From positions 38,454 through 102,453 of the forward strand of contig JAGOLX010000015.1 in the NCBI GenBank assembly GCA_017993835.1: a stretch of DNA of 64,000 nt, given 5' to 3'. Origin of the DNA: Phycisphaerae bacterium (lineage in GTDB: Bacteria; Planctomycetota; Phycisphaerae; Sedimentisphaerales; Anaerobacaceae). Below the pieces are notes generated by a model that worked only from the letters and a program-made list of their open reading frames with translations, was not told the origin of the DNA and searched no databases. Position numbers and translations under genes: made by a program. Positions 47,085 through 61,225 of the stretch are shown here, one piece after another (position 1 is the stretch's first letter; each line of letters opens with the position of its first letter).

Positions 47085-47171
47085 GTCATTCCTGCGTCAG
47101 GCGGGAATCCAGGAGCCTTGGGACCCGGCGCGACCTGGGGAGTGGTGGATTCCCGCCTTCGCGGGAATGAC
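47085..47171. repeat. REP/MITE-like palindromic element, copy D
   Basis: gtcattcctgcgtcaggcgggaatcc ... ggattcccgccttcgcgggaatgac. The internal ccaggagccttggg is shared with the copy at 57967. Confidence 0.75.
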
Positions 47172-47423
47172 AACCCACGGCTCCATGCACCTCCAGCACA
47201 TACACACTGATGCGGTTATGCACCCCCGGTATTCCGCGCGGGCGAGGCGAAACAGCAACCGAAAGAATAAGGCTCTTTCCGCCAACAGGGCGCTGTCCTC
47301 GCGCGTTATCATAGTAGACGGCCGCAAAGTGAGCAGGCGTGCATGTGCAGAGTGCAAGACCGCAAGCGACATTCCGTTGAGGACGCAGGACCCGCGGGAC
47401 CGGGAGTGGCCCCAGTGCGTCTC

Positions 47424-55868: not shown

Positions 55869-55936
55869 CCATCAGATCCTGCGGGTGTTGGCCCGCGATG
55901 TATTCGCATCCCCCCGGGCAATCTTGTCCCCCGATT

Positions 55937-56011
55937 GTCATTCCCGCGGAAGCGGGAATCCACGTCTTTGAATGTGCGGTGCTCTGGGGTCTGGATTCCC
56001 GCGCGCGACAC
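55937..56011. repeat. REP/MITE-like palindromic element, copy E (right arm degenerate)
   Basis: gtcattcccgcggaagcgggaatcc ... ggattcccgcgcgcgacac. It generates the spurious MSFPRKRES N-terminus of ORF 55935. Confidence 0.7.
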
Positions 56012-56039
56012 AGATTTGCAGAAATCGCCAAAATTCTCG

Positions 56040-56068
56040 TTGACAGATTGGTCAAACACACATACTAT
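56040..56068 (+). promoter_or_regulatory. sigma70-like promoter of lexA with overlapping palindrome
   Basis: TTGACA (56040-56045), 17-nt spacer, TACTAT (56063-56068). The -35 is part of the palindrome TTGAC-agattg-GTCAA (56040-56055). Confidence 0.55.
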
Positions 56069-56096
56069 GGGTGAGGTTGAATTGAAGGAGTCGATC

Positions 56097-56717
56097 ATGC
56101 AGCCATTGACAGCGAAACAGCGGCAGACACTGGAATTCATCGAGGCCCGGTTGGACCAGAATGCCCCGCCAAGCCAGCGGGAGATCGCGGATCACTTCGG
56201 GCTGGCTCAGAATGCGGCGTATCAGTTGGTCAGTTACCTTCGGAAGAAGGGATACCTGGTGGATTCGGTCGGGCATCGGGGAATTCGCCTGTCGGAGGAG
56301 TATGCCCGAAAGCGCAGCCAGACCGAGGGGATTCCCATCCTTGGGCGGGTAGCCGCGGGAACTCCCATTCTGGCCCAGGAGAATATCCAGGGGTATATGA
56401 CCGTCGAGAAGCTATTCGGGCGGGACAACGGGATGTTCCTGCTCAAGGTCGCCGGCGACAGTATGGTCGATGAAGGGATCCTGGACGGCGATTACGTCGT
56501 CGTCCGAGGTGACTCGACCATCGACGATGGGCAGATCGGGATCGTGCTCCTGGATGATGAAGCCACAGTCAAGCGGGTGTTCATCCAGAAAGACCGGATC
56601 GCCCTGAAGCCCGCCAATCGCAGGGCCGGCTACAAGACCCGCTATATCAAGCAGTTCGACAAGAATGTTCGCATCCTGGGCCGGGTCGTCGGCTGCATTC
56701 GGACGGGCATTCAGTAA
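56097..56717 (+). CDS. lexA: LexA repressor (S24 self-cleaving)
   Basis: ATG at 56097 after AAGGAG. wHTH LTAKQRQTLEFIEARLDQNAPPSQREIADHFGL. Cleavage-site region GRVAAGTPILA. Catalytic GDSMVDEGILDGDYVVV and ATVKRV. Confidence 0.9.
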   Translation: MQPLTAKQRQTLEFIEARLDQNAPPSQREIADHFGLAQNAAYQLVSYLRKKGYLVDSVGHRGIRLSEEYARKRSQTEGIPILGRVAAGTPILAQENIQGYMTVEKLFGRDNGMFLLKVAGDSMVDEGILDGDYVVVRGDSTIDDGQIGIVLLDDEATVKRVFIQKDRIALKPANRRAGYKTRYIKQFDKNVRILGRVVGCIRTGIQ

Positions 56718-56774: not shown

Positions 56775-57626
56775 ATGGCTTGTCCTGTGCATATCGGTAT
56801 TGCCGGCTGGTCGTATCCCGACTGGGACGGGATCGTCTATACGGACCCGAAGGCGGATCACCTCGAATATGTCAGCGGATTCGTCGATTGCATCGAGGTC
56901 AACAACACGTTCTACCGGCCGCCCGTCGAGGGGATGGCGCGGTCGTGGCTCGAACGCACCGCGGGGCAGCCGGGCTTCTTCTTCACCGCCAAGCTGCACC
57001 AGAGCTTCACGCACGAGGGCAAGATCGACGCGCTCGTGGTAAAGCAATTCCACGAGGGGTTTGGCCCGATGCTGGAAGCCGGCAAACTCAAGCACTTGCT
57101 GGCCCAGTTCCGCTACGACTTCACGGATAATCCCGCGAATCGCGAGCACGTCAGCAGGATCGTCGGGCACTTCAGGGACGCTTTCAGCGTCGTTCTGGAA
57201 CTGCGGCACAAATCGTGGGAGAAGCCGGCCTCGCTGGAGTTTCTCCAGGGGCTCGGGGTGACGGTGACCAATCTCGACTATCCCACGTCGTCACAGTCTT
57301 TCAATCTGCAACACTGCACGGTCGGCAGGGCGGGCTACTTCCGCATGCACGGGCGCAACGCCGAGAAGTGGTTCAGCAAGGCCGGACGGGACGAGGTCTA
57401 TAACTACCTCTACAACGAAAAGGAGCTGGCCGCCATCAAGGAGCGTCTCGACGTCCTGGGCAAGGCCTTCGAATCGCTGACCGTGATCGCGAATAATCAT
57501 TACCGGGGGGCCGAACTGGCCAACGCCATCGAGCTCAAGGCGCTGGTCAGCGGCCAAAAGCAACGAGTCCCTGAGGGGCTTTTGAAAACCTATCCACGTC
57601 TGGCAAGAGTCGCCATACAGAACTGA
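56775..57626 (+). CDS. DUF72 (YecE-like) protein
   Basis: IGIAGWSYPDWDGIVY...IEVNNTFYRPP...FFFTAKLHQSFTH are DUF72 hallmarks. Confidence 0.85.
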   Translation: MACPVHIGIAGWSYPDWDGIVYTDPKADHLEYVSGFVDCIEVNNTFYRPPVEGMARSWLERTAGQPGFFFTAKLHQSFTHEGKIDALVVKQFHEGFGPMLEAGKLKHLLAQFRYDFTDNPANREHVSRIVGHFRDAFSVVLELRHKSWEKPASLEFLQGLGVTVTNLDYPTSSQSFNLQHCTVGRAGYFRMHGRNAEKWFSKAGRDEVYNYLYNEKELAAIKERLDVLGKAFESLTVIANNHYRGAELANAIELKALVSGQKQRVPEGLLKTYPRLARVAIQN

Positions 57627-57910: not shown

Positions 57911-57966
57911 AGAGTCGTTCCGAGGTATCGGATTCAATTCATATAGAACAGTGCTACCCCGCGATT

Positions 57967-57991
57967 GTCATTCCCGCGAAAGCGGGAATCC
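57967..57991. repeat. REP-like single hairpin unit, copy F2
   Basis: gtcattcccgcgaaagcgggaatcc followed by aggagccgtggg, as in copy D. It generates the spurious MSFPRKRES N-terminus of ORF 57965. Confidence 0.75.
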
Positions 57992-58054
57992 AGGAGCCGT
58001 GGGGGAGTGACATGCCCTGCGAGGAGTCTTACCGTTCGTTCGAATGGAGAAGGT

Positions 58055-61000
58055 ATGCGGATAGCCGCGTTGACATGCCGGAGTTTTTACAGCCTCCTGA
58101 GGGGGCCTGTTTCCGTGCTGCGCTGGGTGCAGAAGGTCGCGGAATTTGGCTACGGAGCGGTGGCCCTGGCGGATGTCAATTCTATGTCCGGACTGGTGGA
58201 TCTGTGCAAGGCCGCCAGGGGGGTGGATGTCCAGCCAATCCTCGGCGTCGAGATCCTGACCGAGAGCCAGCAGGCGATCCTGCTGGCGGAGGATTCGTTG
58301 GGCTACAGCAACCTCTGTCAAATCACGACCGCCAGGAACCTGAACCCGGATTTCGACCTCGTCGAGCAGTTGGGGATCGACAGCAGGGGGGTCATCTGCA
58401 TCGGCTCGCAGACGAAGCTGCTGGACGAGTTGAAGACGGTCATCCCTCCAGGGCATCTGTTTGCAGGTTGCCGAGACTCCCGGGCGGTCGAATGGGCGAC
58501 ATCGCACCGGTTCGAGCCGATCGCCTGGACGGGCGTCAACTGGCTCGATGAAGGCGACAAGGAGCTTGCCAGGCTCCTGGCGAGAATTCGACAGTTGAGC
58601 GTAGCCGGACCGGGACCCCACGAGGATGGTGGCCTGGAGACTCTTGCCCCCGCCAAACTGGTCGAGGAAGAACTCCGACACTGTCCGCGGGCATTGGCAA
58701 ACGCAGATCGACTCGTAGAGCGATGCCGCTTCCGTCTGCTGAATGGCAAGCCGATCCTGCCTAAGGTCGAGCTGGGCAAGGAGACCACCAGCGACAGGGA
58801 GCTGGGCAAGCTCTGCCATGTGGGCATGGCCCGGAAGTACAATCCCGTCCGTCATGAAGTCGTCAAGCGTCTGGAATATGAGCTGGCGACCGTGAAGCAG
58901 AACGGTTTCACCGACTATTTTCTCGTGGTCCACGAGATCGTGAACTTCGCCAAGCAAAACCGGATTCCGGTCGAGGTGCGAGGGTCCGCCGCGGGCTCGC
59001 TGATCGCTTATGTGCTGGGCTTTACGCGGGTGTGCCCCGTCGAAAACCGCCTGTACTTCGAGCGGTTCATGAATCCCGGGCGGACCGATTGTCCCGATAT
59101 CGACATCGACCTGTGCTGGCGGAGGCGGGACGAAGTCATCCGTTTCTGCTACGAGCGATGGGGTTTCGAGCGGGTCGCCATGGTCTGCAACATCAATCGT
59201 TACCGCCTCCGCAGTGCGATTCGCGACGTCGGACGGGCGATGGGTCTGGAACCCTCGCAGATCAACCAGTTGGCCCGCGAGGGCAAGATCAAAAGGACCT
59301 CCCCGGTCTACAGGCTGGCGGAAAGGCTCGTGGGCATCCCGCGGCATCTGGGCGTCCATTGCGGCGGGATCGTCGTCACGCCGGGACCTGTCTGCCGGAT
59401 CGCACCCTTGGAACGAGCCAACAAAGGCGTCATCATCACGCAATATGACAAGGACGCCGCGGAGGCGGTGGGCCTGATCAAGATCGACCTGTTGGGCAAC
59501 CGTGCGCTCTCGACGGTCAACGAGGCGATTCAGGTCATTCGTTCGAGAGAAAACGTCACCGACGATGTAGTTCGCCGCGCAGGTCTGGACGTCCCCTCTG
59601 GGGGCTCCGCCCCCAGTCCCCTGGCATTTTCCGCTTTGAACCAGCAGCATGAAGGGTGCCGACCGTCCCAATCCGGCGGGTGGGGGGCACGGCCAACCTT
59701 GGTTGACCGTGCTCCAGGGATTAGGGCGATAGCCGTGGAGGACACGGTCCGAGCGAGTGTGGCCGTGGCACCCCAAAGCGAATGTCGCAACATTGCCCCT
59801 CTATCATGCTATTGGCCCAAAGCGGAAAATTTCGGGGGCTCGGGGGCGGAGCCCCCGAAATCGTTGATCTTCGATCCGAACGACAGCAAGACCGCGGACA
59901 TGCTCAGTGCAGGCGACAGTCTGGGCGTGTTCCAGAGCGAATCGCCCGGCATGAGGCAGCTCCTTCGCGGCCTGAAGGTCCGCAGCAAGAGGGACTTGGC
60001 GATTGCCCTGTCGCTCATTCGACCGGGACCCGCTTCGGGCGGCATGAAGGCCGAGTTCATCGAGCGTCATGTCCACAACAAGCCCTTCGAGTACCTGCAC
60101 CCGAAGATCGCGGGCCTGCTTGGCGACACTCACGGCGTGATGCTCTTCCAGGAGGATGTCATGCGGATCGCGGTCGAAGTAGCCGGCTACACCGTTGCGG
60201 AAGCGGACCGCTTTCGCTCCGAGGTCTCCAAGAAGGTCTCCGCCTCGCGGCTGCAGGCGCAGTACGTCGATTTCGTCCGCGTGCGGGCCCAACAGGCCGG
60301 GATTGACCGTAAGACCGCGGATGCGATCTGGGACGAGGTCCTGCGCTTCGCCGCCTATTCCTACTGCAAGGCCCACGCGACCGTCTACGCCAATATCGCC
60401 TGGGAGACCGCCTGGCTGAAGGCCCACTATCCCCAGGAATTCTACTGCTCCCTGTTCAACAATCACCAAGGGATGTACCCGCTGCGGGTGTACGTCTGGG
60501 ACGCGAAGCGGCACGGCATCCAGGTCCTGCCGCCGCACGTGAACCACAGCGAGATCGAATGGAGTCTCCAGGATAACGCCATCCGGGCGGGACTGAACCT
60601 GGTGAAAGGATTGACCGGCGCGACCTCGGGAGCGATTGTCGAGGGGCGTCGTCACGGTCCGTTCCACGACCTGGCCGATTTGCGAAGGCGCATAAGGTTC
60701 CGCAGGCCGGAATTGCAGAATCTTATTCACGTGGGAGCCTGTGACGGTCTGGGGCCCACGCGACCGGCGATGCTGGGCGAACTGCGTTTTGCCCTGCCGT
60801 CGCAGGAGCCTACACTGTTTGATATCCACGCATCGTCAGCTCGAAACCTGCCCGACTACGATGGGATCGCCAAACTGGAGGCGGAACTCGACGTCACGGG
60901 CGTGTCGTTCGCCATGCATCCGTCGGTTCTGCTGCCCAAACGTTATGTGACCGCCTCCCGGCTGCATGGCTTTCTCGGCAGAACCGTCACCGTCGCTGGA

Positions 61001-61225
61001 TTCGTGGCGACAGCCCGTCGGGCCCGCACCAGCGATAACCGCGTGATGGGCTTTGTGACGCTGGAGGACACCACGGGGATGGCGGAAATCAGCTTCTTCC
61101 CCGACAAGCTCCCGCTCTATCGAACAATCTGTTCCTACGGCGGCCCGGTCTGGGTGGCAGGCAGGATCACGGAGCATCTGTCGTCCCTCTCGGTCGATTG
61201 CTCCGCCTGCGGCAGACTCGCCTAA
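58055..61225 (+). CDS. dnaE2: DNA polymerase III alpha-subunit family protein, DnaE2 (error-prone) type, carrying an internal insertion
   Basis: ATG at 58055 after GGAGAAGG. The N-terminal LTCRSFYSLLRGPVS resembles the DnaE2 HC.SNFSFLRGAS motif rather than the DnaE1 PHP HLHxHS motif. Core motifs DLLGNRALS, GVFQSESPGM, LIRPGP, YSYCKAHA are present. The protein ends right after the OB fold (VAGFVATARRARTS...GFVTLEDTTG) with no tau-binding tail. Confidence 0.8.
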   Translation: MRIAALTCRSFYSLLRGPVSVLRWVQKVAEFGYGAVALADVNSMSGLVDLCKAARGVDVQPILGVEILTESQQAILLAEDSLGYSNLCQITTARNLNPDFDLVEQLGIDSRGVICIGSQTKLLDELKTVIPPGHLFAGCRDSRAVEWATSHRFEPIAWTGVNWLDEGDKELARLLARIRQLSVAGPGPHEDGGLETLAPAKLVEEELRHCPRALANADRLVERCRFRLLNGKPILPKVELGKETTSDRELGKLCHVGMARKYNPVRHEVVKRLEYELATVKQNGFTDYFLVVHEIVNFAKQNRIPVEVRGSAAGSLIAYVLGFTRVCPVENRLYFERFMNPGRTDCPDIDIDLCWRRRDEVIRFCYERWGFERVAMVCNINRYRLRSAIRDVGRAMGLEPSQINQLAREGKIKRTSPVYRLAERLVGIPRHLGVHCGGIVVTPGPVCRIAPLERANKGVIITQYDKDAAEAVGLIKIDLLGNRALSTVNEAIQVIRSRENVTDDVVRRAGLDVPSGGSAPSPLAFSALNQQHEGCRPSQSGGWGARPTLVDRAPGIRAIAVEDTVRASVAVAPQSECRNIAPLSCYWPKAENFGGSGAEPPKSLIFDPNDSKTADMLSAGDSLGVFQSESPGMRQLLRGLKVRSKRDLAIALSLIRPGPASGGMKAEFIERHVHNKPFEYLHPKIAGLLGDTHGVMLFQEDVMRIAVEVAGYTVAEADRFRSEVSKKVSASRLQAQYVDFVRVRAQQAGIDRKTADAIWDEVLRFAAYSYCKAHATVYANIAWETAWLKAHYPQEFYCSLFNNHQGMYPLRVYVWDAKRHGIQVLPPHVNHSEIEWSLQDNAIRAGLNLVKGLTGATSGAIVEGRRHGPFHDLADLRRRIRFRRPELQNLIHVGACDGLGPTRPAMLGELRFALPSQEPTLFDIHASSARNLPDYDGIAKLEAELDVTGVSFAMHPSVLLPKRYVTASRLHGFLGRTVTVAGFVATARRARTSDNRVMGFVTLEDTTGMAEISFFPDKLPLYRTICSYGGPVWVAGRITEHLSSLSVDCSACGRLA
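59593..59860. mobile_element. MITE/RPE-like inverted-repeat-bounded element inserted in-frame in dnaE2
   Basis: Left arm 59593-59638 cccctctgggggctccgcccccagtcccctggcattttccgctttg. Right arm 59818-59860 caaagcggaaaatttcgggggctcgggggcggagcccccgaaa. The reverse complement of the left arm matches the right arm at about 34 of 43 positions. The span coincides with ~90 extra residues between two conserved polymerase motifs. Confidence 0.55.

Follow-up and report, generated by a model that had tools for sequence, protein, structure and literature searches.

The window analysed here, a 64,000-nt stretch of contig JAGOLX010000015.1 from a Phycisphaerae bacterium, holds a gene whose product resembles DNA polymerase III alpha (DnaE type, C family); between the palm and finger domains of this product lies extra sequence bounded by inverted repeats. 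What is this DNA, and how has it come to lie in frame inside a polymerase gene? A first, sequence-only reading likened it to the Rickettsia palindromic elements (RPEs), which are inserted in frame into protein-coding genes. We found that the segment belongs to a family of small, non-coding palindromic repeats, here called family A, of which it is one copy. [quoted passage not shown]

The extent of the insertion was defined by comparing the polymerase with its orthologues. Between the motifs DLLGNRALS and GVFQSES the window protein has 137 residues, as the sequence-only reading had correctly counted, and most orthologues have 38 (a D-to-V spacing of 147 versus 48). In an alignment to E. coli DnaE, query residues 498 and 597 fall on residues 575 and 579, which describes a clean insertion of ~95-99 aa. 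It begins ~20 residues past the DLLG motif, which aligns to the E. coli FDFLG motif; in E. coli Pol III alpha we take the latter to carry the third catalytic Asp, D555. A protein identical to the window polymerase is known from a Phycisphaerae metagenome-assembled genome (MAG; P0001), and an orthologue that is 96% identical and 937 aa long (P0002) has a DLLG-to-VFQSES spacing of 48, which is an empty site. DNA of the empty allele from three metagenomes (L001-L003) has near-identical flanks; the loop between them, VAHGPNGSRERS, is 12 codons long, against 111 codons in the window. Compared with the empty-site orthologue, the excess is 297 nt net, exactly 99 codons, and the extra stretch is real. 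It consists of a 263-bp element and ~34-36 nt of poorly conserved loop sequence 5' of the left arm. The 268-bp interval first proposed is not a multiple of three and does not match the net difference; it is therefore not the inserted unit.

We next examined the element itself. An inverted-repeat search placed the arms at 59600-59652 and 59804-59856 (53 nt, 81% complementary, 151 nt between them), and a profile of the arms placed them at 59599-59653 and 59803-59858, giving arm lengths of 53-56 nt across the two placements. The inverted repeat is thus genuine, although the positions first given for its arms (59593-59638 and 59818-59860) differ by as much as 15 nt from those found here, and the length of ~45 bp then suggested was too short. 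The 15-mer GGGGGCTCCGCCCCC occurs exactly at 59600 and its complement exactly at 59842-59856; this pair alone is within chance, with at least two matches in 21 of 100 shuffles. Folded as single-stranded DNA (ssDNA), a 279-nt stretch is predicted to form one long hairpin of -90.9 kcal/mol, compared with -55.2 +/- 4.0 kcal/mol for 200 shuffles (z = -9.0). The host reading frame is open throughout the element, as had been seen from the sequence, and the other five of the six frames are closed; the predicted peptide includes SGGSAPSPLAFSALNQQHEGCR. The interior of this element matched that of no other fetched copy.

To find further copies, we searched a genome collection with the two-block arm pattern GGCTCYGCCCC-N12-ATTTTYCGCTTTG, for which ~0.01 chance matches are expected by our estimate from degeneracy and database size. 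The pattern matched 51 loci, spread over at least 20 MAGs, with several in each genome and as many as 5-6 in one MAG. These loci belong to Sedimentisphaerales, Phycisphaerales, Pirellulales and unclassified Planctomycetota MAGs, and six copies lie on one Acidobacteriota chromosome. Just one of the 51 (L028) is a polymerase copy; the other 50 are elsewhere. With the arm profile we recovered 96 arms, among them ~34 convergent pairs of 148-534 bp, many of these with homologous interiors. Most of the 50 loci outside the polymerase are inverted pairs of 150-530 bp in intergenic DNA. The family-A unit is two inverted arms of ~56 nt and a variable interior, typically 200-320 bp in all. Its arms are conserved and its interiors are variable or unrelated between subfamilies, which is the inverted-doublet trait of REPINs. 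Copies outside the polymerase are intergenic or lie just 5' of genes. We also considered whether any of these are in-frame intragenic insertions and rejected the idea, as their open read-through frames are wrong-frame junk. Viral contigs and plasmids had no family-A copies, and the flanks of the dispersed copies showed no common target sequence. Target-site duplications (TSDs) had been reported missing at the window copy; we likewise saw none there, and a systematic search over ~34 copies gave 2-4-nt chance matches and nothing consistent. Family A has unusually long arms and no match in Rfam or in the repeat literature examined.

The host gene, as judged from its sequence, is intact and under purifying selection: against the empty-site orthologue the ratio of nonsynonymous to synonymous divergence (dN/dS) is 0.10-0.15 at a dS of ~0.2, and the divergence is mostly in the loop. 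Minus the insert the polymerase would measure ~957 aa. Pfam recognises PHP, DNA_pol3_alpha (palm, PF07733), DNA_pol3_finger (PF17657), HHH_6 (HhH) and OB fold domains, and the gap between palm and finger in this map is the exact place of the element. In an AlphaFold2 model made with 51 orthologues, residues 502-602 are coil with a predicted local distance difference test score (pLDDT) of 21-25, between confident helices at 483-507 and 611-618. The insert is therefore probably a disordered loop between two helices. The host loop in which it lies is short, variable and exposed to solvent. We saw no protein-level constraint on it. Between carriers, the proportions of nonsynonymous and synonymous differences in the arms are about equal (pN ~ pS; the right arm of L007 was left out of this comparison), so there is no sign of selection on the insert peptide. 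Since its 99 codons lack a stop, the ribosome would read through the insert, and the resulting ~100 residues between palm and fingers would not destroy the enzyme.

We then asked which other polymerases carry the element. Family-A elements occupy the polymerase loop in independent assemblies (L004, L005, L006, L007, L060, L064/L028 and L065), and the insert ends of P0003, P0004, P0006, P0007 and P0031 translate like those of the window; the terminal peptides GGSAP.P.AFSAL..QH and WPKA.N.GGSGAEP recur in these orthologues. DNA of four carriers (L004-L007) has conserved arms and wholly unrelated interiors, two of which hold nested palindromes. The right junction is equivalent in every carrier, the separate lineage L064 included. 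Some arms have decayed (the right arm of L006, and those of L060 and L007), and complementarity is kept in the intact carriers. The family-A carriers group in a single clade of a neighbour-joining tree; the empty P0002 also falls inside it, as does P0005, which has a different short insert. Nested centrally in several family-A elements (L006:3201-3470, L065, and L056 at ~4000) is a further palindromic repeat, whose units AAATCCGAAATCCGAAATC… and GATTTCGGATTTCGGGTTTCG translate as KSEIRNPK… and …SDFGFRVS. Small repeats in these genomes often nest or abut, and GTAGGGTG-type REPs flank L021, L048 and L054. In the L064 polymerase (JABAOC010004137.1, 1501-5022), a further insertion of ~180 nt, which contains Ns, follows residue ~101, and the frame changes around residues 386-410; this allele may be a pseudogene in decay, or it may be badly assembled.

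Family A is not the only occupant of this site. The loop, at position ~497, and a second linker at ~829 are repeatedly occupied by several unrelated palindromic repeat families. In a multiple alignment of 120 orthologues, ~27 have 8-140 extra residues at the first site. At least five sequence families besides A are found there, which we named B (RMGFSPC…AWAEAHPT, a GTAG-type REP), C (…SRFRGNDNGG, a CGTC-type REP), D (GDGPTH…), E (PKHAYASVGMAP) and F (seen in P0081 and P0118). The second in-frame hot spot, ~829 in P0008 numbering, has 9-75 extra residues in ~25 of the 120 (P0017-P0047 and others), derived from other palindromic repeats (…VPARxxAWASRPWIxDHGQDARAT… and …MSLRGAQRRSNL…RLLRCARND…). 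It is the linker before the OB fold, of low confidence in the model, and corresponds to window residues ~902-933 (about 60758-60853), where the window polymerase has no insert. Minor insertion sites were seen at 742 and 864. Unrelated loci likewise hold copies of family B, of family C and of the repeats from site 829, and family C is intergenic in this window. In a second clade of the tree, sister sequences have B, C, D or nothing. By eye, the ~36 nt 5' of the left arm in the window weakly resemble family D, and they may be what is left of a family-D-like palindrome inserted earlier.

To avoid the bias of called proteins, we fetched 80 metagenome loci confirmed by tblastn. The flanks could be scored in 37 of them, and every one of these is in frame and stop-free (32 without an insert, 5 with one). 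Contigs L075 and L122 stop at the loop, and in L065 the polymerase frame is lost past the right arm, which is what a repeat that misleads assembly would produce. Empty loops from 34 orthologues showed no common palindrome or target motif.

We also looked for a mobile element that might have given rise to family A. In the CAVVRJ MAG, a 1.42-kb insertion sequence (IS) unit of the IS110 family (PF01548 and PF02371) is present in 4 copies of 98.7-99.6% identity (L019:2210-3637, L020, L024, L034). It sits directly after the GTAG of a family-B REP (GTAGGATGGGCTTYAGCCC) and has a family-A arm ~90 nt inside its ~200-nt 3' non-coding end, downstream of the transposase gene. On OZ250169.1 (Candidatus Marinacidobacterales, Acidobacteriota), a 1.6-kb rve-type DDE IS has six near-identical copies (L047:1608-3222, L027, L046, L052, L057, L058), and the C-terminus of its transposase is encoded by a family-A arm (…NGGSAPEPPGFSAL…), which places the arm outside Planctomycetota. 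Both were considered as the autonomous parent of family A, and neither can be called so because the arm is internal, not terminal, in each. No IS bounded by two family-A arms was found. No RAYT (REP-associated tyrosine transposase) gene turned up in the fetched flanks, and no whole carrier genome was examined for one. IS1111/IS110 elements are known to target REPs, and a Coxiella MITE is also targeted (PMC5896051); IS110-type mobility is treated in the bridge-RNA papers.

These data suggest a simple course of events. Small hairpin elements would land more or less anywhere, and in the polymerase gene only in-frame, stop-free copies in permissive loops would survive. After one palindrome had settled, others could nest into or beside it, and recombination between the flanks, which are highly conserved, would then cause loop alleles to disappear, be replaced or be exchanged.

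Several observations weigh against this account. Synonymous differences in the carrier arms are few (pS 0.04-0.20) compared with those at host synonymous sites (pS 0.45-0.50), and each polymerase arm is as similar to copies at unrelated loci as to the orthologous arms; the decay of an ancient neutral passenger does not predict this. The loop of L064/L028 reads D + B + A, with the family-A element in the same orientation and frame and with the same right junction as in the window, and its polymerase groups with the P0033/P0017 lineage, outside the family-A clade. For this case, insertion at a target or transfer of a cassette is a better fit than random insertion and filtering. The 64-kb window holds no second arm copy; its own genome lies outside the scanned collection, and none of the scanned genomes is closely related to the window organism. 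We found no transposase with termini matching the family-A arms. The elements are shorter than ~600 bp and lack coding capacity, have terminal inverted repeats and are dispersed in multiple copies in the scanned genomes, all as in MITEs, but true MITE membership is doubtful because no TSDs flank the copies. Their absence speaks against a 'cut-and-paste' MITE of the classical DDE kind and in favour of a system directed by hairpins or ssDNA, of RAYT/HUH type or IS110 type. Taken together, the arm conservation and L064/L028 agree with insertion more than once, with conversion from other copies, or with a loop passed on by recombination of its conserved flanks, three routes that the data do not discriminate.

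The same observations could also arise if the loop were a targeted landing pad, at which hairpin-directed or RNA-guided recombination (IS110/bridge-RNA- or RAYT-type, acting in trans) inserts or re-templates palindromes, so that elements are acquired independently again and again with the same junctions. Such a process would place the same element in L064/L028 outside the carrier clade, keep arms near the family consensus and as close to those at unrelated loci as to the orthologous ones, and let B, C, D or no insert turn over between sister sequences. IS110- or HUH-type mobility also predicts the lack of TSDs, and the CAVVRJ unit, with its position after a family-B REP and its family-A arm, agrees with the documented targeting of REPs by IS1111/IS110 elements. 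However, neither the empty loops nor the flanks of the dispersed copies share a motif that could serve as a target, and a single ancestral event would account for the otherwise monophyletic family-A carriers. Recombination between flanks explains the L064 transfer and the empty P0002 allele equally well, and the presence of the arm in the unrelated rve-type IS means that the IS110 link may be incidental nesting. We regard targeting as doubtful. We consider it similarly rather unlikely that the loop is an active, site-specific exchangeable cassette, with families inserted, nested and swapped at one codon-level position and arms kept by re-templating, conversion or selection. If it were, the hairpin or the disordered peptide could possibly tune a mutagenic polymerase of the SOS response, by analogy with the speculation of Di Nocera et al. 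on REP-tagged repair genes (PMC3733652).

A different possibility is that the stem is selected as DNA or RNA, for example as a brake on an SOS polymerase's translation or mRNA stability, or because it gives a signal for recombination or replication, with the peptide as a by-product. The arms are indeed conserved at the nucleotide level, with pN ~ pS far below the host pS, and the interiors are free to change; the predicted hairpin is very stable, and its arms stay complementary in intact carriers. Yet a near-identical orthologue does without it, others have unrelated sequence or nothing at the site, the arms of L006 (right), L060 and L007 have decayed, and the same arms are intergenic in many genomes with no common neighbour. 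A search of Rfam at gathering thresholds and at E <= 1 gave no intron or structured RNA, the sole match being a chance hit to blv_FSE (E = 0.68). Such a function appears quite unlikely. That the insert is a lineage-specific protein domain or functional loop extension, its inverted-repeat DNA being coincidental, would agree with the open frame and the recurring terminal peptides. It is disfavoured because the 96%-identical orthologue has an empty site, so close orthologues do not share a conserved segment. In addition, this DNA recurs elsewhere as a repeat that is dispersed and mostly intergenic, the interiors cannot be aligned, the arms show pN ~ pS, and the insert has neither predicted secondary structure nor a Pfam domain; we think a domain very improbable. 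An assembly chimera, to which the two contigs ending at the loop and the frame loss of L065 might point, is disfavoured because independent assemblies from other samples carry the element at this site; in the window and at least five of them, the two junctions are intact, as is the gene downstream. A spliced intein or intron fares no better, as the insert has 99 aa (an intein usually has at least 130 aa) and no Hint or intein match in Pfam, and Rfam gave no group I or II intron. An artefact or an element removed from the product is barely credible.

Reading the segment as a dispersed palindromic repeat, we compared it with known systems. REPINs were reportedly described by Bertels and Rainey in 2011. 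Elements of the MITE/REPIN kind (Correia, ERIC, Coxiella QMITE1/2) are likewise short, non-coding, multi-copy and hairpin-forming with inverted termini, and REPINs also consist of two inverted conserved units and a variable spacer. Family A differs from them in having no TSD, no autonomous partner with matching ends and arms (56 nt) longer than REP units. QMITE2 is also tied to GTAG REPs and to IS110/IS1111 insertions (PMC5896051).

In-frame insertion into genes is classic for the RPEs of Rickettsia and has been reported for other MITEs (PMC10969869). As far as the work of Ogata et al. 2000 is summarised in PMC10969869 and PMC3733652, RPEs are small palindromic repeats that lie in frame in functional genes, add peptide sequence where the fold can accommodate it, and comprise several families that are also intergenic. 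The window shares an open frame, a host dN/dS of about 0.1 and an empty-site orthologue with that pattern, and the dispersed arms and the predicted disordered loop further bear out the resemblance that the sequence-only reading had proposed. Set against the RPEs of those summaries, the element differs in sequence and phylum, in size (263 bp here versus about 100-150 bp for RPEs), in the 56-nt arms and variable interior, and in range: the polymerase is the only intragenic target seen for family A, whereas RPEs occupy dozens of genes. The likeness is one of working only, the elements having been compared by type.

The closest precedent concerns the gene class. Di Nocera, De Gregorio and Rocco 2013 listed in-frame REPs in DnaE2 genes of S. 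wittichii (166-246) and O. terrae (934-971) and in dnaE of R. conorii (853-861), and replication and repair genes are argued to be preferentially REP-tagged (PMC3733652). Because of these reports the phenomenon is of a known kind. The behaviour that had seemed unfamiliar is not new for this class of genes. The other loop inserts and the window's REPs (TGTCATTCCCGCGAAAGCGGGAATCC; GTAGGATGGGCTT.AGCCC) are of the CGTC and GTAG types. The family-A arm is different: it begins (T)TGGGGGCTC, lacks a GTAG or CGTC head and, at 56 nt, does not have the form of a REP stem-loop tag of 20-40 bp, and it is part of a much longer composite unit. The published positions also differ from ours, and PMC3733652 describes no multi-family hot spot with turnover at one loop. 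In-frame palindromic repeats, including those in dnaE2, are thus already known; new here are the phylum, the insertion site, the larger composite element and the multi-family hot spot with turnover.

Table 1. Positions in the window of the family-A element, its parts, the host gene and neighbouring genes.
Feature	Position	Strand	Basis or remark
lexA (LexA_DNA_bind + Peptidase_S24)	55935..56717	+	two genes 5' of the polymerase
DUF72 gene	56775..57626	+	between lexA and the polymerase
DnaE-type (C-family) DNA polymerase III alpha-like gene, host	58055..61225	+	1056 aa from the first Met
Remodelled host loop with ~36 nt extra (…RSRENVTDDVVRRAGLDVP)	59546..59596	+	diverged form in other family-A carriers
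Family-A palindromic element (MITE/REPIN-like), 263 bp	59597..59859	+	arm profile, hairpin, dispersed copies
Left arm (TCTGGGGGCTCCGCCCCCAGTCCCCTGGCATTTTCCGCTTTGAACCAGCAGCATGA), translation SGGSAPSPLAFSALNQQHE	59599..59653	+	repeat search, arm profile
Element interior	59654..59802	+	contains nested 14-nt inverted repeat 59682-59695 / 59760-59773
Right arm, reverse complement of the arm consensus, translation CYWPKAENFGGSGAEPP	59803..59858	-	repeat search, arm profile
Right junction (ATCGTTGATC); host sequence restarts at TTCGATCCG (FDP)	59860..59869	+	carrier comparison

The genes around the element are listed in Table 1; the mechanical open reading frame around the polymerase spans 57965-61225. 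The gene had been named dnaE2. Its protein scored 586.5 bits against NF004225, the model for the error-prone polymerase (cut-off 939), and 595 bits against NF004226, the DnaE model (cut-off 1002). Its neighbours are lexA, the DUF72 gene and an aldo/keto reductase gene, with neither imuA nor imuB among them. Because both NCBIfam cut-offs were missed and imuA/imuB neighbours are absent, the 'dnaE2' label is not secure; the nearby lexA may point to a link with the SOS response. The order lexA - DUF72 - DnaE-type polymerase (- aldo/keto reductase) is kept at the orthologous loci L001-L006, also with no imuA/imuB. Copies of the CGTC-type TGTCATTCCCGCGAAAGCGGGAATCC REP lie in the window at ~57966-57991, ~55936-55961, ~47101-47110 and ~47147-47172, and its core 12-mers occur 4-5 times. 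One copy is directly 5' of the polymerase start and one directly 5' of lexA. This is the repeat type behind the in-frame family C inserts (…SRFRGNDNGG) in the loops of other orthologues.

In conclusion, the locus extends the in-frame palindromic colonisation of essential-type enzymes, best known from Rickettsia, to Planctomycetota (Phycisphaerae/Sedimentisphaerales). Such inserts inflate protein length, break metagenome assemblies at this gene and can pass for new domains. They also amount to a natural experiment: at least six repeat families of unrelated sequence have added 8-140 residues to one or other of two linkers, and filled and empty alleles that are closely related are available side by side. 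This may be of use for studying the tolerance of a C-family polymerase to disorder, how hairpin elements choose their sites or survive there, and whether the REP-tagging of repair and mutagenesis genes means anything for function.

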